A stretch of 53,754 bases of DNA from positions 1-53,754 of IMG/VR virus record IMGVR_UViG_3300032218_003168; one strand, given 5' to 3'. Positions 5,516 to 17,915 of the stretch are shown in pieces. Source of the DNA: a virus (Duplodnaviria > Caudoviricetes). A model generated the notes under the pieces. The model worked only from the letters and a program-made list of their open reading frames with translations, searched no databases and had not been told where the DNA came from. Each line of letters begins with the position of its first letter. The first letter of the stretch is position 1. The translations under genes and the position numbers were made by a program.

Positions 5516-6195
5516 TTGAACATAAATTATTCCCAACTCTTATTACTGAATTTCATTATCCGGATAAAGATAATTTTAAACAAATTTTTATTGATAATAT
5601 TTTTAAATTTACAACACCTGAAGGATATTCAGAAGAAAAAACAGGACATGTAACATTACATCATAACAAAAATTTTGAACAGTTATTTAAATTTTCAACA
5701 GAATCAGTAAAACAATACGTAAATCGTTTACATATAGATATTGATAAATTTGATTTTAATGTAGTAAAAACATGGATGAATATTAAAAAAACAGCGAAAA
5801 CTCAACGTCATGCTCACCCCGATGCTCATATATCTTTTACGTATTATATTAATATGCCAGAAAATTGTTTATTGCCAATAAGGTTTTACCACCCAGAACC
5901 AGTGGAACCTTATCCTGGTTCTATTGAAAATAATAATACGAAAAAAATATGGGACGAAATTAATTCTTCAACTTGGTCTTTTACACCAAAAGAAGGACAA
6001 CTATTCGTATTTCCATCTATGTTGCAACATGATACTATCGGCGAAAATTTATTTAAAAAAGAACCAGGAATAAACAAAGAAAATATACTACAGTATAGGC
6101 TTTGTTTAGCTGGAGATATATTACTTACATATAAAGATAAAACACCAAGCCCTATAGGTATTCAACCAGTTAAAAATTGGAGAAAATTTTCATGA
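5512..6195 (+). CDS. Putative 2OG-Fe(II) oxygenase (TIGR02466-like phage family)
   Basis: LFPT N-terminus, W.N...H.H (WMNI..HAHP), SFTYY, and P.EG...VFPS.L.H motifs. Confidence 0.8.
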   Translation: MIEHKLFPTLITEFHYPDKDNFKQIFIDNIFKFTTPEGYSEEKTGHVTLHHNKNFEQLFKFSTESVKQYVNRLHIDIDKFDFNVVKTWMNIKKTAKTQRHAHPDAHISFTYYINMPENCLLPIRFYHPEPVEPYPGSIENNNTKKIWDEINSSTWSFTPKEGQLFVFPSMLQHDTIGENLFKKEPGINKENILQYRLCLAGDILLTYKDKTPSPIGIQPVKNWRKFS

Positions 6196-6791
6196 TTTAT
6201 AATAATCCTGTCGAAAGAGCACGCATTAATCAACCATGGGTTTGGCAAGATGATATTTTTACAGAAGAAGAAATTGATTCTATTATAAAGTATTGTGATT
6301 ATGAGGGTGTAGAAATTGGAACTATTTTTGGGTCTGAAGAAAAAGAAACCGTAGAAAAATTTAGAAAATCAGGTATAAAATTTCATAAAAGAGATCAAAA
6401 TACCGCTTGGATATTCGATCGGATTAACACTGCTATTGAAGCGAATAATGAAAGATACTATCGTTTTAATTTAAATGGCTATGAATATTTTCAATATACA
6501 ACGTACGATAAAGAAGGAAGATATGATTGGCACATGGACATGGCTATGGGTTTAGATCCTGGTAATTGCCAGGAACCAAGAAAATTGAGTATGACTATTT
6601 GTTTAAATGATGATTATACTGGTGGAGAATTTCAAATTAATTTGGGTAAAGAAAAAGATGCAATTACAATCCAATCTAAAAAAGGAAGAGCATTTTTCTT
6701 CCCTTCTTTCGTTCTCCACAGAGTAACACCTGTTAAAAAGGGCGTTCGCAAATCTTTGGTTGTTTGGGTCACTGGTCCAAAATTTGTATAG
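6192..6791 (+). CDS. 2OG-Fe(II) oxygenase, PKHD/prolyl-4-hydroxylase-like
   Basis: HxD (WHMD), RKLS, YTGGEF, FPSFVLHRVTPVKKGVRKSLVVW. The ATG at 6192 (ATGA overlap with the upstream stop, GGAG SD) is preferred over the track start at 6177. Confidence 0.9.
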   Translation: MIYNNPVERARINQPWVWQDDIFTEEEIDSIIKYCDYEGVEIGTIFGSEEKETVEKFRKSGIKFHKRDQNTAWIFDRINTAIEANNERYYRFNLNGYEYFQYTTYDKEGRYDWHMDMAMGLDPGNCQEPRKLSMTICLNDDYTGGEFQINLGKEKDAITIQSKKGRAFFFPSFVLHRVTPVKKGVRKSLVVWVTGPKFV

Positions 6792-8916: not shown

Positions 8917-9480
8917 TTAGATTTTACTAGCTAGTATAGTAAAATTTATTGTATTTTCATTTTTAAAAATTGTTTTTAAATCGTCGTCTATTTTACCTTC
9001 CAATACTGCAATTTTATCATCTGAATTATGTATTTTATAATCTATAATATTTAAATTTGCATTTTGCAAAGCAGTAGTATATTTTAAAATTGATGAATCT
9101 GTATTAGATGTAATAATATTATTAATTAATACTAATTTGTTACTTGTATTGGCAATATCTTGTACTACATCATTCATAAATTCTCGTTCTACCCACTGAA
9201 GTACGTTATGACAAATTACAAGATCAAAAGTTGTGTTTGGGTGTGACGAATATTCAGGAACGAATGGATCATATTTCGCTAGTTCAACATTTGTTATATT
9301 AAACAAATTAAAACTATTTTGAACACTATTGGAATAACCGCAACCGTAATCTAAAATACTTGAAATATTATAATTATCAACCAAATCTTTTATACGAATT
9401 CTACCATTAGAACCTATAAAAACATAAAAATTTGATGTTTTATTTGATCGATTATAATTATTTGACCATAATTGCGTCAT
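8917..9480 (-). CDS. Class I SAM-dependent methyltransferase
   Basis: Motif I SILDYGCG, YDP, FDLVIC..VL..V; GGAGG SD. Confidence 0.8.
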   Translation of the reverse strand: MTQLWSNNYNRSNKTSNFYVFIGSNGRIRIKDLVDNYNISSILDYGCGYSNSVQNSFNLFNITNVELAKYDPFVPEYSSHPNTTFDLVICHNVLQWVEREFMNDVVQDIANTSNKLVLINNIITSNTDSSILKYTTALQNANLNIIDYKIHNSDDKIAVLEGKIDDDLKTIFKNENTINFTILASKI

Positions 9481-9498
9481 TGTTACCTCCTGATGATG

Positions 9499-10242
9499 TC
9501 ATATATTTATCACAAGTTCTACGTTTGGTGTAAAATTTTTCATTGTATAAATTTTATTTAAAACATTTTCATAATTTCTGCTGTATTGATACTCAATTTT
9601 TGGTCTAAAAGAAACACCATAAATTGAGTTTTTAAACTCTTGGTGATCATCAAATTTTTTCCATTCGTCTTTCATAGCTTTAACTAATTCAGGCGTCCAC
9701 ATAAAAAAATACAAACTAGAATCAATACCAATCAACGCATCATTATAAAAATCCCATTCATTTACACAATCATATCCATGCTCACCTATAACTGCTACAC
9801 CACCATTGTCTACTGCATATTTGGCGGCTATATAAGTTGCAACAGAATTAGGAGCTACACTGTTTATTTTTTTAAATATTTGTTCGTAGAAAACGGTTAG
9901 CATCTCTGCTTCTGTTTTTTTAATAACAATTGGTGTTATGTTATTTCTTTTACAATAATGGAAAGCATAAGAAGATTCTAATTTGTTACCTGGGGTTTCT
10001 ACGATAATAGGAATTGCCGTTTCCTCGAAACAATCCATAACAAATTCAGAGTCCATACCACCACTTAGTGGAACGTATATTTTATTATATGTGTTTACAA
10101 TATCATCACGAGCTTTTAAAGATTCTTTTAAAAATCCTTCGTGTATTACTTCTGAAACATTATATGATACAGAAAAAACAGTAGAAGGATCGGTCAACCT
10201 ATCTCTTATGTTAGTTGTTAACCACTGGTTTTTCGTTGCCAT
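9499..10242 (-). CDS. PP-loop ATP-dependent enzyme, short paralog C
   Basis: IYVPLSGGMDSE PP-loop; FFMWTPEL resembles FFWTPDFP in paralog A. Confidence 0.65.
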   Translation of the reverse strand: MATKNQWLTTNIRDRLTDPSTVFSVSYNVSEVIHEGFLKESLKARDDIVNTYNKIYVPLSGGMDSEFVMDCFEETAIPIIVETPGNKLESSYAFHYCKRNNITPIVIKKTEAEMLTVFYEQIFKKINSVAPNSVATYIAAKYAVDNGGVAVIGEHGYDCVNEWDFYNDALIGIDSSLYFFMWTPELVKAMKDEWKKFDDHQEFKNSIYGVSFRPKIEYQYSRNYENVLNKIYTMKNFTPNVELVINI

Positions 10243-10657
10243 TTAATATATCCCAAATAGGAAAAAATACACCATAATTTTTAGTCGGATTTTCGTGATG
10301 AATTAGATGCCATTTACCGCTTGTTAAGAACGGATATAGATTAATTTTATCGTTATGCTCAACCGCCTCTTGTATATACCCCGCCCAAATATAATAAAAA
10401 ATAGCAACCCACCACTGCCCCGTAATTAATGAAAATAACAGAGTCGGTATTACTTCTGTAAGCCACTGATCAATCGTACTCTCTATACTATCGAAATATA
10501 GAAAACAATTTTTCCAGTTAAGCCCTTCAACAGTTGATTGAGATACTTGCTTATGATGGTCCATATGATACTTACGCATAAAAGGAACTATATGAGCCGC
10601 TCTATGCGTAAAGTATAATAACAATGTCCAACATAAAAATGTAACTACGTAAATCAT
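10211..10657 (-). CDS. Fatty acid hydroxylase/sterol desaturase family membrane di-iron enzyme
   Basis: His boxes HRAAH, HMDHH, EH and HLIHH followed by NYG.F...WD; hydrophobic segments. Confidence 0.85.
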   Translation of the reverse strand: MIYVVTFLCWTLLLYFTHRAAHIVPFMRKYHMDHHKQVSQSTVEGLNWKNCFLYFDSIESTIDQWLTEVIPTLLFSLITGQWWVAIFYYIWAGYIQEAVEHNDKINLYPFLTSGKWHLIHHENPTKNYGVFFPIWDILNGNEKPVVNN

Positions 10658-11694
10658 TCTAAGTAATAAGATTTACTATCGAATGACATAGATCCAGTTA
10701 CTGGACCATATTTTTTAATAGTTTGCAAACCTTCTAAAAACATATTATACATATCACTATTTTGATTTTTTAACATGTACATATCTCTTGAAGATATAGA
10801 AGTTGTAAAAGATTTTTTAGATTTAAATATTAATGGAGTTTTTAAATTATAAATTAATTTAGCTATAACTTTTTCTTTACTACCGAAAAGTAAAGAAAAT
10901 TGACTGTCTTTATTTAAATTTATAATTGATCTGTTAATGATATGATTTTGTTTTGCCATAATTTTAATAGCTATAGGATCTGGATCTGTATAAAAATTAA
11001 CACGTTTAAAATTTTCATTATTATACAAAGAACCATAATCATTAAATGATAAATCAGATATTTTAAAATGTGGTTTTGGATAATTAAAATATTCTGGTTT
11101 ATCAGACCCCATAATATATGCTGTTTGTTTTTTATTATTTTTTCCTACAAATGTTTTTAAATCATGCCACCATAAATGGTGTACACTTTTCCATGCACCT
11201 ATGTATTTTGTCCATTCATTTCCATATTCTCTAATCAACGAAAAATTATTTGGATTATTAAACCATTCTGTATAATCATAATACGATAATTTTGTATTAG
11301 GTAAATTCATATTTTTAAGAGTGTTTTGACAGTTATGATAAACATCACCGTTATGATTTTCATCAGATCCTTTATATGAATCCTGTGAAAATGCGCCAAC
11401 CATAATTAGTTCGTCGATATGAATATTATTATAATAAAAAGTTTCTAATATATTAGTAGAATCGACACCACCCGAATAACATAAAATCAAATATTCGTTT
11501 TCATCACGTATTTTTTGAGCTCTTTCTTTATATAACTGTTCTAAAGGCTCGAGTGGTTCGATTGTCCAATCTACTTGAGAAAATTCTTTATCGTAATAAT
11601 AAAAAAAAATATTTTTACCTTTTTTTTCAGCTGCTACAGCATCTAACTGTGTTGGGTAAATATTTTTTTCATTATCATAATAAAACATATGCAT
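10654..11694 (-). CDS. PP-loop ATP-dependent enzyme, paralog B
   Basis: LILCYSGGVDS, G.DKP and KQ.H motifs shared with paralog A. Confidence 0.7.
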   Translation of the reverse strand: MHMFYYDNEKNIYPTQLDAVAAEKKGKNIFFYYYDKEFSQVDWTIEPLEPLEQLYKERAQKIRDENEYLILCYSGGVDSTNILETFYYNNIHIDELIMVGAFSQDSYKGSDENHNGDVYHNCQNTLKNMNLPNTKLSYYDYTEWFNNPNNFSLIREYGNEWTKYIGAWKSVHHLWWHDLKTFVGKNNKKQTAYIMGSDKPEYFNYPKPHFKISDLSFNDYGSLYNNENFKRVNFYTDPDPIAIKIMAKQNHIINRSIINLNKDSQFSLLFGSKEKVIAKLIYNLKTPLIFKSKKSFTTSISSRDMYMLKNQNSDMYNMFLEGLQTIKKYGPVTGSMSFDSKSYYLE

Positions 11695-11705
11695 TTTAAA
11701 ATACT

Positions 11706-12122
11706 TTAATTTTTAAGACCTTTTAAAAGCTCTTCTATTTCTGATTCTTGAAGTTCTGGAACTATCATAGTAGGAGCAGCTGTTAATTTAATTAAAGTTT
11801 CTTCATTTATAGATTTTGTAACTCCAACAAGAGGAGCTATATGATTAATATCAGTGTTAATGTTTGGGTCTAAAACTGATTCTAGTAATTTTAACCAATT
11901 TAAAGGTGTATTTTTTACTATCAATTTATTTAAATCTTCTCCTTCTTCTGGTGGGACAGAAAGATTAAAAGATACATCTGTACGGCAACGTACAGGTGTT
12001 CCATCTTCTTTACGATTTCCATCAGAAGCTAACATTTCTTCTGTGATATTATCAGTCCAATATCTTGCAACGATAAGATGATCATTTGGCCATAGTTCAA
12101 TGATTTTGTAATGAATGTTCAT
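11706..12122 (-). CDS. Hypothetical protein, translationally coupled to the adhesin (possible chaperone or accessory protein)
   Basis: 138-aa ORF with an ATGA overlap with the upstream gene; no recognisable motif. Confidence 0.55.
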   Translation of the reverse strand: MNIHYKIIELWPNDHLIVARYWTDNITEEMLASDGNRKEDGTPVRCRTDVSFNLSVPPEEGEDLNKLIVKNTPLNWLKLLESVLDPNINTDINHIAPLVGVTKSINEETLIKLTAAPTMIVPELQESEIEELLKGLKN

Positions 12123-13564
12123 GCTACTGGTCCTGTTCTAGTTCCTGTGTTAATGTATGCGGTAATATTAGCATTACCTGTTATCGAATTTCCTTGTGTT
12201 CCTGCAGGTCCAGTAGGACCAGTACTACCAGGTGTTCCAGTAGGTCCTGTTCCTCCAGCTGAACCAGCTGGACCTGTTGGTCCTTGACTGCCTGTCGGAC
12301 CTGTACCACCAGCCGCCCCAGCTGGTCCTGTTGGACCTGTTGGCCCCTGTGATCCACCACCACCGCCCGATCCCCCGTAGCTACCAAATGGGGCATATGG
12401 ATAAGTACTAGCACCTCCTGTAGCGCCACCTGCCTGAAGCGCCCCTCCATCACCACCTCGGCCACTATAAAAAGCACCTTGATATGTACAAATTCTTCCA
12501 GCGCCACCACTGCCGCCATAATAACAACCGCCGCCGCCACCTGGGTTTCCATAACCCCAACCCCATGGCGTCCCATTACCACCTGGTCCACCTGGTCCAT
12601 ACCATCCACCACCACCGCCACCGCCACCTGGTTCGTACGAACATGGTTGTCCTTTTGGTCTTCCATAAAAAGTTGCTTGCCCGCCGCCGCCACCGCCGCC
12701 GCCACCGTATCCACCAGGACCGCCAGGACCACCAGGACCAGCTGCGCCACCTGGACCGCCAGGACCGCCAGGACCACCAGGACCACCAGGACCAGCGCCA
12801 CCACCAGGTCCGCCAGGACCGCCTGAACCACCTGGCCCACCTGGCCCACCTGGCCCACCAGTACCGCCGACTATTGATGTTGTGTTATTAAGATAAAGGA
12901 AAACATTCGAATTAGTGTCTGCTGTAAATGCAGAACCACCGCCATATCCAGTACCACCAGTTCCACCTGCAGTTCCAGGACCACCTGTTCCGCCAGCAGT
13001 ACCAGTGCCACCAGTACCACCTGGACCACCAGTACCACCAGTACCACCAGTAGTTCCATTACCGCCAGTTCCACCAGTACCACCAGTAGTTCCAGGAGAT
13101 CCTCCACCTGCATTCATATTTCCTGGGGGATAGTTTCCACCACTAGCTCCTGTGCCACCAGCGCCTCCACCTCCTCTAGAACCAGTACCGCCAGTAGTAC
13201 CAGTTCCACCTGCAGTTCCAGGAGTACCAGTTCCACCTGCAGTCCCAGTTGCGCCTGTTGTTCCTATAGTTCCAGGAGTTCCAGTAGTTCCTGTAGTACC
13301 AGGAGTTCCAGTAGTTCCTGTAGTACCAGTTCCACCAGTTATAGTATTAGCATTTTGAACATATAACCAGCTACCAGCAGCCCAACCAGTACCTGTTCTA
13401 AAAGCAGGAGTAGTGTTTGAAGTTGCAGTAATAGGGGCATTAATTAAAGCAATAACGTTAACGCCATATGCAGGAGAACCAGCTTGTGTATAAAGATTTA
13501 CATTCTGTGATGAAGAAGTAATATTTACGATTTGAGTTGGTCTTGTGATAAAATTAACAAACAT
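12119..13564 (-). CDS. Glycine-rich, gp38-like receptor-recognition adhesin with four Gly-X-Y runs
   Basis: Layout resembles T2/T6/S16 gp38: beta-strand caps (LYVQNANTITGG, LYLNNTTSIVGG), polyglycine motifs separated by aromatic loops, and C-terminus GNSITG...INTGTRTGPVA. Sits at the end of the fibre cluster. Confidence 0.65.
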   Translation of the reverse strand: MFVNFITRPTQIVNITSSSQNVNLYTQAGSPAYGVNVIALINAPITATSNTTPAFRTGTGWAAGSWLYVQNANTITGGTGTTGTTGTPGTTGTTGTPGTIGTTGATGTAGGTGTPGTAGGTGTTGGTGSRGGGGAGGTGASGGNYPPGNMNAGGGSPGTTGGTGGTGGNGTTGGTGGTGGPGGTGGTGTAGGTGGPGTAGGTGGTGYGGGSAFTADTNSNVFLYLNNTTSIVGGTGGPGGPGGPGGSGGPGGPGGGAGPGGPGGPGGPGGPGGAAGPGGPGGPGGYGGGGGGGGGQATFYGRPKGQPCSYEPGGGGGGGGWYGPGGPGGNGTPWGWGYGNPGGGGGCYYGGSGGAGRICTYQGAFYSGRGGDGGALQAGGATGGASTYPYAPFGSYGGSGGGGGSQGPTGPTGPAGAAGGTGPTGSQGPTGPAGSAGGTGPTGTPGSTGPTGPAGTQGNSITGNANITAYINTGTRTGPVA

Positions 13565-13568
13565 AGCT

Positions 13569-14261
13569 TTACTTTACGTTAGGTAAGAATGAACCGTATA
13601 AGTTAGTTCCGTCAGATACGAAAGAGAAAATATCTCTAGCAGCTGCAGTTGTTGTTAATGGAGGGGCAGTTCCAGCTGGCCATTTGAATACAGCATTCCA
13701 TGTAAGTGTTCTAGAACCAGTACCGTCTTGAATAACATGTAATAGATATGTTGTTACTTTAAGATTCGTTGGGGCTGCAATTGTTCTATTACCACCAAGT
13801 GTAACAGTAGCAATTTGGCCAGCAGATACATCCCATGTAATTGTAGCAGCATCAGTTAGTGTCTGGTTAAGTGTATTAGCTTGAGACGAAACAGTTCCAT
13901 TAAAAGTTACTGTATTAGAAAATGATTGAGTGTTAGTCCATGCAAACTGAGCCGATACGTTAGTTCCAACAGCGCCTGTTGACCCCCAATAAGCATTAGC
14001 AGAAGGACCACCAGAATATAAAATATAGCCAGCTGAACCTGTATTTGTAGCACCATTAACATAAAGTAATCCAACTGATATGGTATTAACTGCTACTGAA
14101 GTAGAATTAATAGCAGCATTAACAGAGCTATTTCCTACAGAAATTGTTCCGTTTACTGCGAATGAAGTTGGCGTTACAACAGCATTAACCGTGCTATTAC
14201 CAACACTAACATAAGTGTTAGCTACAATTCCATTTTTTACTACAAAATCTACTGCTGCCAT
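13569..14261 (-). CDS. Short tail-fibre-related protein
   Basis: N-terminal DFVVKNG. Shares the WTNTQSFSNT module with other fibres and a ~100-aa C-terminal domain with 14304..17915. Confidence 0.65.
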   Translation of the reverse strand: MAAVDFVVKNGIVANTYVSVGNSTVNAVVTPTSFAVNGTISVGNSSVNAAINSTSVAVNTISVGLLYVNGATNTGSAGYILYSGGPSANAYWGSTGAVGTNVSAQFAWTNTQSFSNTVTFNGTVSSQANTLNQTLTDAATITWDVSAGQIATVTLGGNRTIAAPTNLKVTTYLLHVIQDGTGSRTLTWNAVFKWPAGTAPPLTTTAAARDIFSFVSDGTNLYGSFLPNVK

Positions 14262-14303: not shown

Positions 14304-17300
14304 TTATTTTACGTTAGGTAGTAACGAACCATACAAATTTGTTCCATCAGAAACGAATGAAAATATATCACGAGCAGAAGCAGTTGTTGTAAGCGTCGGA
14401 GCTACACCAGCTGGCCATTTGAATACAGCATTCCATGTAAGTGTTCTAGAACCAGTAGCGTCTTGTAATACATGTAAGATATATGTTTGAACTTTTAAGT
14501 TTGTTGGAGCAGCCATCGTTCTGTTACCTGCAAGTGTTACAGTAGCGACCTGACCAAGAGAAGTATCCCAGCTGATTGTAACGCCATCAGTAAGGGTTTG
14601 TTGAAGTGTATTAGCTTTGGAAGTGTTTACAGTACCGACAACATCAAGAGTTGCAGCTGGTGATGATGTTCCGATACCTAAGTTTCCGTTAGCAACATGA
14701 TATGCCGCTGTACCTATAGTAAGTGTATTAGCAGTAGTTACAGTTCCAGTAAATGTCGGTGAAGCTAGAAGAGCATAAGATGCAGCTGCTGTACCACCAA
14801 GGTAAGAAGCGTTGTTAGCAGGTAGTAATGCTACTGCAGCTGCCAAGTTAGCAGTGCCTTGATATGAAGCAGCTGCAACTGTTCCCAAATAAGAAGCATT
14901 ATTGGCGGAAATCGTTGCGATATAAGAAGAGTTTACATGAACACCAGTAGCATTAACTACAGTTCCAGTTCCAGCAACAACAAAAATACCACTAGTGTTT
15001 TGTGATAGTCCTGCTGAAGTATTGGCTAGATAACTAGAAGCAATAGTGCCGCCCAAATAAGAAGCGTTATTTGCTGGTAGTAATGCTACTGCAGCTGCCA
15101 AGTTAGCAGTACCTTGGTAGCTAGCTGCTGCGACAGTGCCAAGATAAGAAGCGTTATTGGCGGAAATAGTTGCGATGTATGCAGCGTTTACCGTGATTGT
15201 ATTTGCTGTATTTGTTAAACCAGTACTGAAAGTATAAGAAGCACCAGAAGATACCGTTGACCAATATACGTTACCAGTTCCATTAGAGGTCAATACTTGA
15301 CCAGCTGTACCTTGAACACCTGTAGAGTCAAATAAAGTTGCACCAGATGGTATTGTCAACCCGCCGTTATGAACCGTGCGAACAGAAAAACTCATATTGC
15401 TTGTTATGCTGTTCGCAAATATTGACCAAATTGCTCTTTGGCCATAAGCAGTATTTGTAGAATACATAACAAAATTGTCGTCATTTTGCTGAATGAACGA
15501 AACGTATGTCGAAGTATTTACTGTTTGGAAATTTAAAGATTTAGCATTATTAATATTAAGATTTGCCGCAGAAGTTAATGTACCAGTAATTAACGTATTC
15601 GAAGTTATATAAGTGTTTGTACCACCAATACTGAGGTTAGCACCAGTAAATGAAGCGTTTACAGCTTTCACTGCTGCTGAAGAGTTTACAGTGAAGTAAG
15701 TACCTACGTTGGCTGATGTTGTTACATACAACGTAGCAGTGTTTGTTTGGTTAGTTACGTTAAGTGCAGCTGCTGTTGTTGTTCCTGTAAATGTTGGCGA
15801 AGCTAGAAGTGCATAAGAAGCAGCAGCAGTGCCACCAAGATACAATGAATTATTAGCTGTTGCTGTTGAAGATGTTGAATTGATAGTAACATTAACAGAA
15901 GAATTACCGATAGCTATAACAGTAGAGTTAGCAACAAATCCACCAGTAATGGAACCATAACCACCACCAGTTGTAAATGAAGCAGCATTAACTACGCCAG
16001 TATATGTTGGTAAATATGCTGCGATATTAGCTGATAATGTTGAATTAAGTTGATAAGAAGCAGCAGCAGTGCCACCAAGATATGATGCATTATTTGCCGA
16101 AATAGTTCCAATATAAGTCGCATTAACATGGACACCAGTAGCATTAACTACAGTTCCAGTACCAGCAACAACAAAAATACCACTAGTGTTTTGCGACAAA
16201 CCATAAGAAGTATTGGCTAGATAACTCGATGCGATTGTACCGCCAAGGTAAGAAGCGTTGTTAGCAGGTAGTAATGCTACTGCAGCTGCCAAGTTAGCAG
16301 TGCCTTGGTAGCTAGCTGCTGCGACAGTGCCAAGATAAGAAGCGTTATTAGCAGAAATCGTTGCAATATAAGAAGAGTTTACTGCTAACGTAGTTGCTGC
16401 CGAACCGTCATATGCAGCGCCAACAGCATAATATAAACCAGTTCCGCCTGTCAATGCATAAAGAGCTTTAGAACTAAACTGTACGAAAGTAATAGGATCT
16501 GTACCAATTGTAGTTACAGTTGCGCTTTCAACCCAAGAAGTGCCAGTACCAACCGAACCTTCAGTAACATAAATTAAGTCACCCTTATCGATTTCGTTAT
16601 AACCAGAACCAACATAATCATAATCAGTTGCTCTTGTTAGAACCCAAGCAGAAGATGCGTTTCCTGTATTAGAAACAGTATAGATACCATTCAAAGCAGT
16701 ATTAGTTTGCGCTCTAACAAGAATACGATCTTGATATGCAGCTGTAACTGTATCAACAACAAGAGCTGCAAAAGTTGTAGTTTTTGTAAGAGTTGCACCA
16801 ACACCAGAAGTACCATTATTATATGTAACTGTACCCAAATCTGTATTCGTTACTAAACGAACAGCGGCATGGAAATTAACACCAGTAGCGATAGCATCAG
16901 CATATTGCTTGTTAACAATATCTGTGCTGTTAGTTGCCAAAGTTGTTATTGTACCACCAGTCAATGATACGTTAGCACTATACGTATGTGCACCAGTAAT
17001 TGTATATGTACCTGAGGTGTTTACATATGAAGCAGCTGCAACGCCACCAAGATAAGAAGAGTTATTAGAACTAAGAGTTGCTACGTTTGCTGAAAGAGTG
17101 CTATTTAATTGATAAGACGCTGCAGCTGTACCACCAAGATATGAAGAATTATTAGCAGATAAAAGAGCAACAGCAGATGATAAATTCGCTGTTCCCTGAT
17201 AGTTTGCAGCTGCAACTGTACCGAGGTAAGAAGCGTTGTTGGCTGTAAGAACAGTTGGCAGACCCCAATAATCATTACCAGAACCATCAGTCAATAGCGC

Positions 17301-17915
17301 CTGACCAGCTGTACCCCAAGTACCATTAGCTTGAATGCCAGAACCATTAGCAAGAACTATATCACCAGCAGCGCCGACAACAACTTGCCCACCGACATAT
17401 AAAGTTGATGTATGGTATACGTTAGTACCAGTAAAATTTATGTTACCAGCAAGAGTATAATTTCCAGCTGTATTTACATATGAAGCAGCTGCAACGCCAC
17501 CGAGATTTGTGGCATTGTTAGAAGTTAACGTAGCTACGTTAGAAGACAAACCAGCAGTCGTTTGATATCCAGAAGCAGCAGTGCCTCCAAGGTTTGTAGA
17601 GTTATTTGATGTTCCACTAAAAGCAGTTGAGTTAATTGTTACGTTAACAGAAGAATTACCCACAGCAATAGTTGTAGCGTTTACAACAGCGCCGCCAGTA
17701 GCAGTTCCATAACCAGAACCAGTGCTATATGAAGGAGAGTTAGCACCAACTGTAATTAAATTTGTACCATCTGAAGTATACAAAATTTTATCAGTCATAT
17801 TGAGAGCTAGTTCGCCAGCTGCAATATACTGAGAGTTGGTAGCGTATGAACCTGTCGTATTAGGTGTACGACCAGCAGTTGAAGTGCGTTTTACTTGTAA
17901 TACGTTATTAGCCAT
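14304..17915 (-). CDS. Long tail fibre protein with internal repeats
   Basis: N-terminal LQVKRTS...GELALN..D..LY fibre attachment motif, many NASYLG..AA.Y repeats, DRILV..QT....NGIY.V....W.LTRATD module, GNLGIGTSSP. Confidence 0.85.
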   Translation of the reverse strand: MANNVLQVKRTSTAGRTPNTTGSYATNSQYIAAGELALNMTDKILYTSDGTNLITVGANSPSYSTGSGYGTATGGAVVNATTIAVGNSSVNVTINSTAFSGTSNNSTNLGGTAASGYQTTAGLSSNVATLTSNNATNLGGVAAASYVNTAGNYTLAGNINFTGTNVYHTSTLYVGGQVVVGAAGDIVLANGSGIQANGTWGTAGQALLTDGSGNDYWGLPTVLTANNASYLGTVAAANYQGTANLSSAVALLSANNSSYLGGTAAASYQLNSTLSANVATLSSNNSSYLGGVAAASYVNTSGTYTITGAHTYSANVSLTGGTITTLATNSTDIVNKQYADAIATGVNFHAAVRLVTNTDLGTVTYNNGTSGVGATLTKTTTFAALVVDTVTAAYQDRILVRAQTNTALNGIYTVSNTGNASSAWVLTRATDYDYVGSGYNEIDKGDLIYVTEGSVGTGTSWVESATVTTIGTDPITFVQFSSKALYALTGGTGLYYAVGAAYDGSAATTLAVNSSYIATISANNASYLGTVAAASYQGTANLAAAVALLPANNASYLGGTIASSYLANTSYGLSQNTSGIFVVAGTGTVVNATGVHVNATYIGTISANNASYLGGTAAASYQLNSTLSANIAAYLPTYTGVVNAASFTTGGGYGSITGGFVANSTVIAIGNSSVNVTINSTSSTATANNSLYLGGTAAASYALLASPTFTGTTTAAALNVTNQTNTATLYVTTSANVGTYFTVNSSAAVKAVNASFTGANLSIGGTNTYITSNTLITGTLTSAANLNINNAKSLNFQTVNTSTYVSFIQQNDDNFVMYSTNTAYGQRAIWSIFANSITSNMSFSVRTVHNGGLTIPSGATLFDSTGVQGTAGQVLTSNGTGNVYWSTVSSGASYTFSTGLTNTANTITVNAAYIATISANNASYLGTVAAASYQGTANLAAAVALLPANNASYLGGTIASSYLANTSAGLSQNTSGIFVVAGTGTVVNATGVHVNSSYIATISANNASYLGTVAAASYQGTANLAAAVALLPANNASYLGGTAAASYALLASPTFTGTVTTANTLTIGTAAYHVANGNLGIGTSSPAATLDVVGTVNTSKANTLQQTLTDGVTISWDTSLGQVATVTLAGNRTMAAPTNLKVQTYILHVLQDATGSRTLTWNAVFKWPAGVAPTLTTTASARDIFSFVSDGTNLYGSLLPNVK
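14790..16385. repeat. Intragenic repeats in the long fibre gene
   Basis: Block ~14935-15175 recurs at ~16126-16366 (constant offset 1191), with a third partial copy at ~14790-14935. Core ggtagtaatgctactgcagctgccaagttagcagt at 14821, 15076 and 16267. Confidence 0.9.

Follow-up and report, generated by a model that had tools for sequence, protein, structure and literature searches.

Four matched glycine runs in a candidate gp38-type adhesin of an uncultured T4-like phage suggest a single-chain polyglycine stalk

The adhesin gene and its four glycine runs

We analysed a 53,754-nucleotide stretch of viral DNA (Duplodnaviria; Caudoviricetes), positions 1 to 53,754 of the IMG/VR virus record IMGVR_UViG_3300032218_003168, hereafter called the window. 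This 53.8-kb fragment, estimated to be 32% complete, carries a T4-like structural module, and its large terminase is closest to those of the Sinorhizobium phages phiN3 and phiM12 (57%) and of the Methylophilales phage Melnitz (50%). The gene under study is an open reading frame (ORF) of the minus strand (12119-13564) that encodes a protein of 481 amino acids (aa), of which 186 (39%) are glycine; we refer to it as the adhesin. Owing to its Gly, Pro, Thr and Ala codons, the gene stands out by a G+C content of 0.49, against about 0.28-0.40 in the adjoining DNA, and its GGN repeats also account for the short ORFs seen within it on both strands, which are shadows of the main frame.

The protein alternates pieces rich in predicted beta strands with long glycine runs, and all its parts are given here with their minus-strand positions. 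It begins with a piece of a predicted beta-helix core, the cap (aa 1-76; 13337..13564), which ends in the residues NANTITG. In the AlphaFold2 model, the cap has a predicted local distance difference test score (pLDDT) of 82-94, with strands at residues 10-15, 36-41, 66-71 and 74-76. Run 1 follows (aa 77-139; 13148..13336), made mainly of G-T-T and G-T-P triplets (46% Gly), then a probable hairpin turn (ASGGNYPPGNMNAGG; aa 140-154; 13103..13147), where the triplet periodicity is broken and which is predicted to lie distally, and run 2 (aa 155-211; 12932..13102), made mainly of G-G-T triplets (58% Gly). These elements form what we call excursion 1. A middle beta segment (AFTADTNSNVFLYLNNTTSIVG; aa 212-233; 12866..12931), whose motif is kept in all aligned relatives, would be the rung of the beta-helix that separates the two excursions. 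The sequence-only reading of this gene had placed a beta-strand segment between runs 2 and 3, and the model does have strands there (213-215, 222-227 and 230-232, pLDDT 76-82). Excursion 2 starts with run 3 (aa 234-296; 12677..12865), in which G-G-P triplets are followed by nine consecutive Gly and which is the richest of the runs in glycine (68%). It continues with a distal head (aa 297-397; 12374..12676) of poly-Gly blocks (eight and five Gly) alternating with aromatic and Cys loops, the predicted receptor-binding end, and finishes with run 4 (aa 398-460; 12185..12373), of collagen-like G-P-T and G-S-Q triplets (41% Gly). The C-terminal beta strands (ITGNANITAYINTGTRTGPVA; aa 461-481 and the stop codon; 12119..12184), modelled at residues 461-463, 467-472 and 475-477, would close the beta-helix.

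The same reading had counted four runs of 18 triplets each, and a listing of the triplets recovered all of them at its boundaries: GGT...GSR at aa 77-130, GSP...GYG at aa 155-208, GGT...GGY at aa 233-286 (two of its triplets reading AGP in this phase) and GSQ...GTQ at aa 404-457. Counted mechanically, as maximal stretches with a Gly at every third residue, the runs comprise 21, 19, 21 and 21 triplets (aa 77-139, 155-211, 234-296 and 398-460). The value of 18 thus results from cutting at the poly-Gly ends, while the near-equality of the runs is independent of the cut. The loops that had been listed between the runs (NYPPGNMNA, TFYGRPKGQPCSYEP, TPWGWGY, CYY, RICTYQGAFY and TYPYAPF) are every one present in the translation. 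All four runs have Gly at every third residue, and a second Gly is found in 14 out of 19 triplets of run 2 and in 20 out of 21 triplets of run 3. When the residues of aa 77-460 (46% Gly) were shuffled 5000 times, the longest run had a mean of 7.1 triplets and a maximum of 17, and the fourth-longest run never exceeded 7 triplets, against 19 in the real protein.

At the DNA level, runs 1 and 2 are diverged tandem arrays with 27-bp units, and run 3 contains 2.9 copies of a 54-bp unit of six triplets (12714-12868; 81% matches).

Co-variation of run lengths among relatives

Relatives were gathered from IMG/VR, from contigs of the Joint Genome Institute (JGI) and by two protein searches, with the GN[AS]ITGN motif of the C-terminal strands serving to find them, which gave 27 distinct complete proteins. 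Position decided which run was which: runs 1 and 2 were those of excursion 1, run 3 was the one that follows next on the middle beta segment, and run 4 the one that comes last ahead of the C-terminal strands. This assignment was possible in 18 proteins, the window protein included; L017 was dropped, being nearly identical to L016.

The number of triplets in runs 1/2/3/4 was 5/5/5/5 in P0006, 6/6/7/4 in P0008, 6/6/6/6 in P0054, 7/7/7/6 in P0131, 8/7/9/8 in L020 and 9/7/9/8 in L024. It then rose to 12/10/12/10 in P0050, 11/11/12/11 in L003 (336 aa), 13/14/14/13 in L001 and 17/14/17/17 in L015. Next to the 21/19/21/21 of the window protein came 23/22/22/22 in L016, L018 and L019 and 22/23/24/23 in L026, and the longest runs were those of L012 (47/47/48/47), L005 (53/53/53/53) and L022 (1060 aa; 72/71/72/71). 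In none of these proteins is the difference between runs greater than 3 triplets. The within-protein standard deviation has a mean of 0.65, versus 15.2 (minimum 10.4) in 20000 shuffles of the columns, none of which reached the observed value; the pairwise correlation between runs is at least 0.998, and the result holds when the proteins are collapsed to 10 length classes. Each of the at least 10 length classes requires a joint change of all four runs. Whether the run lengths co-vary in homologues had been put forward as a check of the original idea, and they do change together, from 5/5/5/5 to 72/71/72/71, rather than independently.

We also used a measure that is free of run calling, namely the distances between three alignment-column landmarks, which give the lengths of excursion 1 and excursion 2. 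These distances are correlated in 19 proteins (r = 0.978; 0.92 without the two largest). Moreover, wherever the hairpin turn can be recognised, it is the exact midpoint of excursion 1: 47/47 triplets in L012 (around YTLFFDGEFWFANP, an aromatic loop at the equivalent turn point), 18/17 in the fragment P0058 and 72/71 in L022.

Being diverged tandem arrays, the runs can each be altered by slippage or by unequal recombination. Selection for a closed bundle would then keep only matched sets of runs. We also considered a quantisation of run lengths in steps of 5+6n triplets, suggested by the values 5, 11, 17, 23, 47, 53 and 71 and by the 54-bp period of run 3. It was dropped, because the values 8, 13.5 and 20.5 (the last being that of the window protein) do not fit, and the closeness of several family lengths to 5+6n may be a coincidence.

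Some relatives depart from the plain architecture. In P0076 and P0072, a non-glycine stretch of ~230 aa, apparently an inserted domain, replaces the plain hairpin of excursion 1, which fits a hairpin tip that is an exposed site tolerating binding modules. Two short-stalk relatives (P0063 and P0073) have an additional C-terminal domain of ~210-225 aa past the closing beta strands. Finally, P0046, P0056, P0061 and others, of 1900-3300 aa, contain 10-21 matches to the part of the profile that covers the end of the cap, a Gly run and the middle beta segment; they may be giants built of repeated beta-helix-plus-glycine modules.

Fold, glycine content and a predicted stalk

The AlphaFold2 model of the window protein was built on 6 sequences and that of its relative L003 on 23. 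The former is confident only at aa 10-80, 210-236 and 460-481, all of them beta strands; the latter has a mean pLDDT of 76.2, with 94-98 in the core and 65-81 in the distal part. Both were compared with 48161 representative chains of the PDB. The best match of the window model was 6F45_D, the gp38 adhesin of phage S16 (Z 12.9, root-mean-square deviation (rmsd) 2.3, 127 aligned residues, 23% identity), followed by 9V85_C, the gp38 of phage PP01 (Z 12.5), the next hit being at Z 8.7. The same two chains came first for L003, and they are the only two with Z of at least 8 (next hit Z 7.6): 6F45_D scored Z 13.9, with 156 of 248 residues (36-249 of the chain) aligned at an rmsd of 3.0, and 9V85_C scored Z 13.6, with 205 residues aligned at an rmsd of 34.4, so that this alignment is not one rigid superposition. 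In a Foldseek search of the PDB, gp38 chains filled the top three rows. Among the ESM-Atlas feature neighbours, 26 out of 30 were PF05268 (GP38) clusters (0.91-0.92), and some of the BFVD neighbours bear the name 'Receptor-recognising protein Gp38'; one family member there is named 'Collagen triple helix repeat'. The likeness of the cap to gp38, which the sequence-only reading had assumed, is therefore borne out by the top two structural matches of both models, and Foldseek and ESM-Atlas agree.

As described in the accessible part of its structure report, S16 gp38 consists of an N-terminal alpha-helical attachment domain and a five-ringed beta-helix with two extended turns, b5-b6 (18 aa) and b8-b11 (77 aa), which run along the fibre axis and form polyglycine II (PGII) helices 1-2 and 3-10; these helices make up a 'polyglycine sandwich' with distal hypervariable loops (PMC6851490). 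Judged from its sequence and modelled secondary structure, the window protein has its elements in the same order (beta, Gly, beta, Gly with loops, beta): a beta piece at aa 1-76, excursion 1 at aa 77-211, a beta piece at aa 212-233, excursion 2 at aa 234-460 and a beta piece at aa 461-481. In 19 out of 19 relatives, excursion 2 exceeds excursion 1 in length. On the strength of the models, the window protein is most likely a distant relative, at the level of the fold, of the T2/S16/PP01-type gp38 adhesins.

Searches based on sequence gave a different set of matches. No Pfam family, Collagen included, matched the adhesin at E ≤1, and none matched its three neighbours. With tblastn, neither the whole protein nor its first 80 aa matched any of 50,697 phage records, so no cultured relative is found among these, and a word-based search with residues 1-80 returned nothing at E ≤0.01. 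With the whole protein, the word-based search retrieved mostly collagen proteins (PF01391), only P0006 and P0008 being true relatives among the 10 matches retrieved. Run 4 was the sole part of the adhesin to match PHROG families of tail fibres with collagen repeats, and weakly so (E 2e-4), and Pfam Collagen matches 2 of 22 family members. These matches, the name of the BFVD relative and the Gly uninterrupted at every third residue of the runs would all suit a collagen-like parallel homotrimer in which the equal run lengths are incidental. We nevertheless hold such a trimer to be very unlikely: the window protein itself has no Collagen match even at the permissive Pfam threshold, and a trimer offers no reason for runs that stay equal from 5 to 72 triplets. 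Furthermore, each excursion exits and re-enters one predicted beta-helix, so the strands within it should run in opposite directions, unlike the parallel, in-register chains of collagen. The glycine content of runs 2 and 3 (~58-68%) is likewise atypical of collagen.

The strict three-residue periodicity of the runs and their Pro at every third residue (GGP, GPT) suit an extended helix of three residues per turn and not a beta sheet. In the five expanded members (5 out of 5), the Gly fraction is 0.34-0.46 in run 1, 0.48-0.58 in run 2, 0.62-0.72 in run 3 and 0.34-0.41 in run 4. According to the part available of a study of natural polyproline II (PPII) bundles, helices with more neighbours contain more Gly, terminal helices, which have two neighbours, contain little of it, and successive helices run antiparallel in 96% of cases (bioRxiv 10.1101/2023.11.25.568672). 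The gradient seen in the sequences fits a PGII bundle with runs 2 and 3 as inner helices and runs 1 and 4 as outer ones; packed on a hexagonal lattice, the four helices would then form a rhombus with runs 2 and 3 in its interior. From the triplet periodicity, the Gly gradient and the co-variation in length, we infer that the runs adopt PGII helices.

We propose the following architecture. The small beta-helix core would be assembled from aa 1-76, 212-233 and 461-481, which lie apart in the chain, and two of its turns would be drawn out as glycine-rich excursions, as in gp38, with the first strands of the excursions greatly lengthened. Excursion 1 would go out via run 1, turn at NYPPGNMNA and come back via run 2. 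Excursion 2 would go out via run 3, carry a small head of poly-Gly and aromatic loops, and come back via run 4. The four strands would be left-handed PGII/PPII helices of three residues per turn, lying side by side and antiparallel in one chain, the Gly-Gly-X runs 2 and 3 inside and the Gly-X-Y runs 1 and 4 outside. At 3.1 Å per residue, the figure used in the sequence-only reading, the stalk would measure 16.7 nm if each run has 18 triplets, or 19 nm with the mechanically counted mean of 20.5, i.e. ~17-19 nm in the window protein, and from ~5 to ~67 nm across its relatives. Such a stalk of ~17-19 nm would keep the hypervariable aromatic loops clear of the fibre. Its length would be set by the number of tandem repeats and could change only when all four runs change jointly.

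Taken as a whole, the gene probably encodes a gp38-type receptor-binding tip adhesin with a single-chain, four-strand antiparallel PGII stalk, borne on the tail fibre of an uncultured T4-like myovirus. The narrower proposal, that one polypeptide forms a rigid four-helix antiparallel PGII rod whose length is tuned by concerted changes of repeat number in four segments of the gene, has in our opinion somewhat better than even chances.

The packing into a single bundle and the monomeric state are predictions of this proposal. The fold-back units could be real and the stalk oligomeric, with three (or two) chains, one per fibre subunit, combining into a PGII bundle of 12 (or 8) helices, or with the outer Gly-X-Y runs of neighbouring chains associating. 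Phage fibres are trimers, the co-variation in length fits equally well, and the domain by which gp38-type proteins attach as a monomer to a trimer is absent here; in addition, each subunit of the Pam3 gp24 trimer bears a glycine-rich PGII-type domain, according to the accessible text on this phage (PMC9608196). On the other hand, the closest structure, S16 gp38, sits as one chain on a trimer of gp37 in the part of its report available (PMC6851490). The Pro at every third residue of run 3 and the Thr of run 2 also imply that neither run is fully buried, while buried helices are all-Gly in the known bundles covered by the portion of the study available (bioRxiv 10.1101/2023.11.25.568672). We thus regard an oligomeric stalk as unlikely, albeit clearly less so than a collagen-like trimer.

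Several observations weigh against the single-chain gp38-type stalk. Pfam GP38 (PF05268) matches 0 out of 22 family members at E ≤0.1, the family profile finds only Gly linkers and no gp38 chain among the PDB sequences, and the E-values of the gp38 chains in Foldseek are weak (0.09-0.18). In gp38, attachment relies on an N-terminal alpha-helical domain whose three conserved Trp insert into the trimer of gp37, and this domain was not found in the window protein: its cap aligns to the gp38 beta-helix without this domain, its chain begins ~9 residues ahead of the first beta strand, its sole helix is at aa 24-27 and its first Trp at aa 61, and the structural alignments begin at gp38 residue 29-36. 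Its attachment must therefore differ from that of gp38. As regards run lengths, the counts depend on the rule applied. In short members, the four runs were picked by position from up to seven, and eight short members with irregular runs of 4-9 triplets were dropped (P0120, P0177, L013, L025, P0139, P0121, P0115 and P0083). In L026, L012 and L005, runs were merged over one-residue phase slips or 5-residue breaks, and the unbroken excursion 1 of L005 (106 triplets) was divided at its midpoint. The landmark correlation falls to 0.66 among short members only (n=13), and the shuffle test overstates the independence of the proteins because the sequences are related. Lastly, all four runs of the window model have a pLDDT below 50 (about 30-37), and those of L003 have 46-68.

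These low scores, together with the frequent disorder of low-complexity Gly-rich sequence, would suit flexible, largely unstructured tethers or loops, with folding limited to the beta-helix and to portions of the distal head. However, disordered loops need neither a hairpin turn at the midpoint (47/47 in L012, 18/17 in P0058, 72/71 in L022) nor matched lengths in two separate loops, nor the strict triplet period and the Gly content typical of each run that all five expanded members keep. Flexible tethers therefore appear highly improbable to us.

Distal head, neighbouring genes and known systems

The distal head varies much more than the rest of the protein. While the cap is 49-68% identical to that of 7 relatives, the distal segment is 9-18% identical when the shared Gly columns are excluded. 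Its length ranges from 76 to 141 aa among these 7 relatives and is 16-24 aa in the very long ones. Because this mosaic of conserved motifs and variable loops resembles that of gp38, receptor binding is, by analogy, the most likely function of the distal loops. The distal heads of L015, L016, L018 and L019 contain an internal two-fold repeat, e.g. Y.PGPKADPP.YY or APAPKGCSP, each found twice, which points to the duplication of a binding unit.

Just upstream of the adhesin lies a gene (13569..14261, minus strand) for a fibre protein of 230 aa that matches PHROG tail-fibre families and is a candidate carrier of the adhesin. The last ~100 aa of this protein form a conserved domain (...FKWPAG..SDGTNLYGSFLPNVK); in 15 out of 15 loci with upstream DNA, the immediate upstream neighbour of the adhesin gene finishes with this domain. 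A profile of this end gave 0 matches to PDB sequences. The next gene (14304..17915, minus strand) encodes a repetitive tail-fibre protein of 1203 aa that shares the C-terminal domain (66% identity over the aligned end). By analogy with gp37 and gp38, we propose that the adhesin docks on the conserved end of the upstream fibre. As the 230- and 1203-aa proteins share this end domain, the adhesin might sit on two fibres, or the short protein might be an adaptor.

On the other side (11706..12122, minus strand), a gene for an acidic protein of 138 aa (MNIHYKIIELWPNDH...) has a start that overlaps the adhesin stop by 4 nucleotides (ATGA). A homologue of this protein (127-151 aa) follows the adhesin in 16 out of 16 loci, with an overlap of start and stop in five of them (the window, L003, L005, L012 and L013), and the 138-aa protein is 50% identical to the copy of L005. 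It had no match in Pfam or PHROG and no usable lead in the ESM Atlas; that it is a chaperone or an adaptor would be a guess.

Two further features were noted in the vicinity. A gene set adjoining the adhesin module (8917-11694, minus strand) recurs in L001 (6563-8846) and L003 (7418-9622). It comprises two proteins with an SGGxDS motif (without a Pfam match), which we take to be a PP-loop ATPase signature, a membrane FA_hydroxylase (PF04116, E 6.6e-16) and a weak match to a methyltransferase, and it could be a modification pathway. Farther along, on the plus strand (6177-6791), there is a 2-oxoglutarate and Fe(II)-dependent (2OG-Fe(II)) oxygenase of a prolyl-hydroxylase-like family (PF13640, E 2.9e-16). 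A copy in L003 (10469-11083) is 56% identical to it, and ORFs with a similar N-terminal sequence occur near the module in L001, L002 and L005. This oxygenase might conceivably hydroxylate the Pro of the GGP and GPT runs.

If the proposed architecture is true, a PGII rod in which one chain supplies four strands of 54-216 residues each would represent a novel means of making a long, thin fibre out of protein, and a fibre design distinct from the trimeric phage fibres and from collagen. The natural PGII and PPII bundles described in the parts of the literature available to us are compact domains with helices of about 6-11 residues. We found no description of an elongated gp38-type PGII stalk in a literature search whose coverage left out most subscription journals. 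A phage with such a stalk could tune the reach of its receptor-binding loops, e.g. through a capsule or an S-layer, with the rest of the fibre unchanged, which suggests that reach can evolve apart from receptor specificity. The natural series of lengths (5, 8, 11, 13, 17, 21, 23, 47, 53 and 72 triplets) would offer a system for studying the stability of PGII bundles, their folding register and the upkeep of equal arrays, and, for protein design, a scaffold in which repeat number sets length. The 'collagen-like' labels on genes of aquatic T4-like phages can also conceal gp38-type adhesins.

Among known systems, the gp38 adhesins (S16, 6F45 chain D; PP01, 9V85; T2/T6-type; PF05268) are the closest and give the only strong structural match (Z 12.5-13.9). 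The window protein shares with them a beta-helix core from which two glycine-rich excursions depart (a short one and a long one), distal poly-Gly blocks that alternate with variable loops, and a gene that comes after a fibre gene in a T4-like phage. It differs by having neither the N-terminal helical Trp domain nor a Pfam GP38 match, and its upstream fibre ends in a different conserved domain of ~100 aa. The difference in scale is also large: the PPII-type segments of S16 gp38 are 6-9 residues long, and in the snow-flea antifreeze protein they have 10-11, in the accessible part of a comparison (PMC13243192), while the window protein has four of 54-63 residues, and L022 has up to 216.

In the cyanophage Pam3, gp24 (PDB 7YFW) also has elongated glycine-rich motifs along the fibre axis, which stack into a lattice, and its variable distal tip has been proposed as the receptor-binding part; its domain, however, arises from a tumour necrosis factor (TNF)-like beta-sandwich in each subunit of a homotrimer and has 12 short motifs, as far as the text available describes it (PMC9608196). 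7YFW is absent among the best 50 matches listed for either model. The snow-flea antifreeze protein and the other PPII/PGII bundles studied by the Laurents group are antiparallel, with inner helices richer in Gly, in the portion of the work at hand (bioRxiv 10.1101/2023.11.25.568672), and are in this respect comparable to the order of runs 3 > 2 > 1 and 4. In contrast to a four-strand rod tens of nanometres long, they are globular two-layer structures with the short helices given above, and no homology is implied. Finally, the collagen-like fibre proteins of phages and prophages (PF01391) also have long Pro/Thr-rich Gly-X-Y tracts in a tail-fibre gene, and databases label relatives of the adhesin accordingly. 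Unlike them, the window protein has four matched tracts, two of them Gly-Gly-X, set between pieces of what is probably one beta-helix, with a predicted antiparallel topology.

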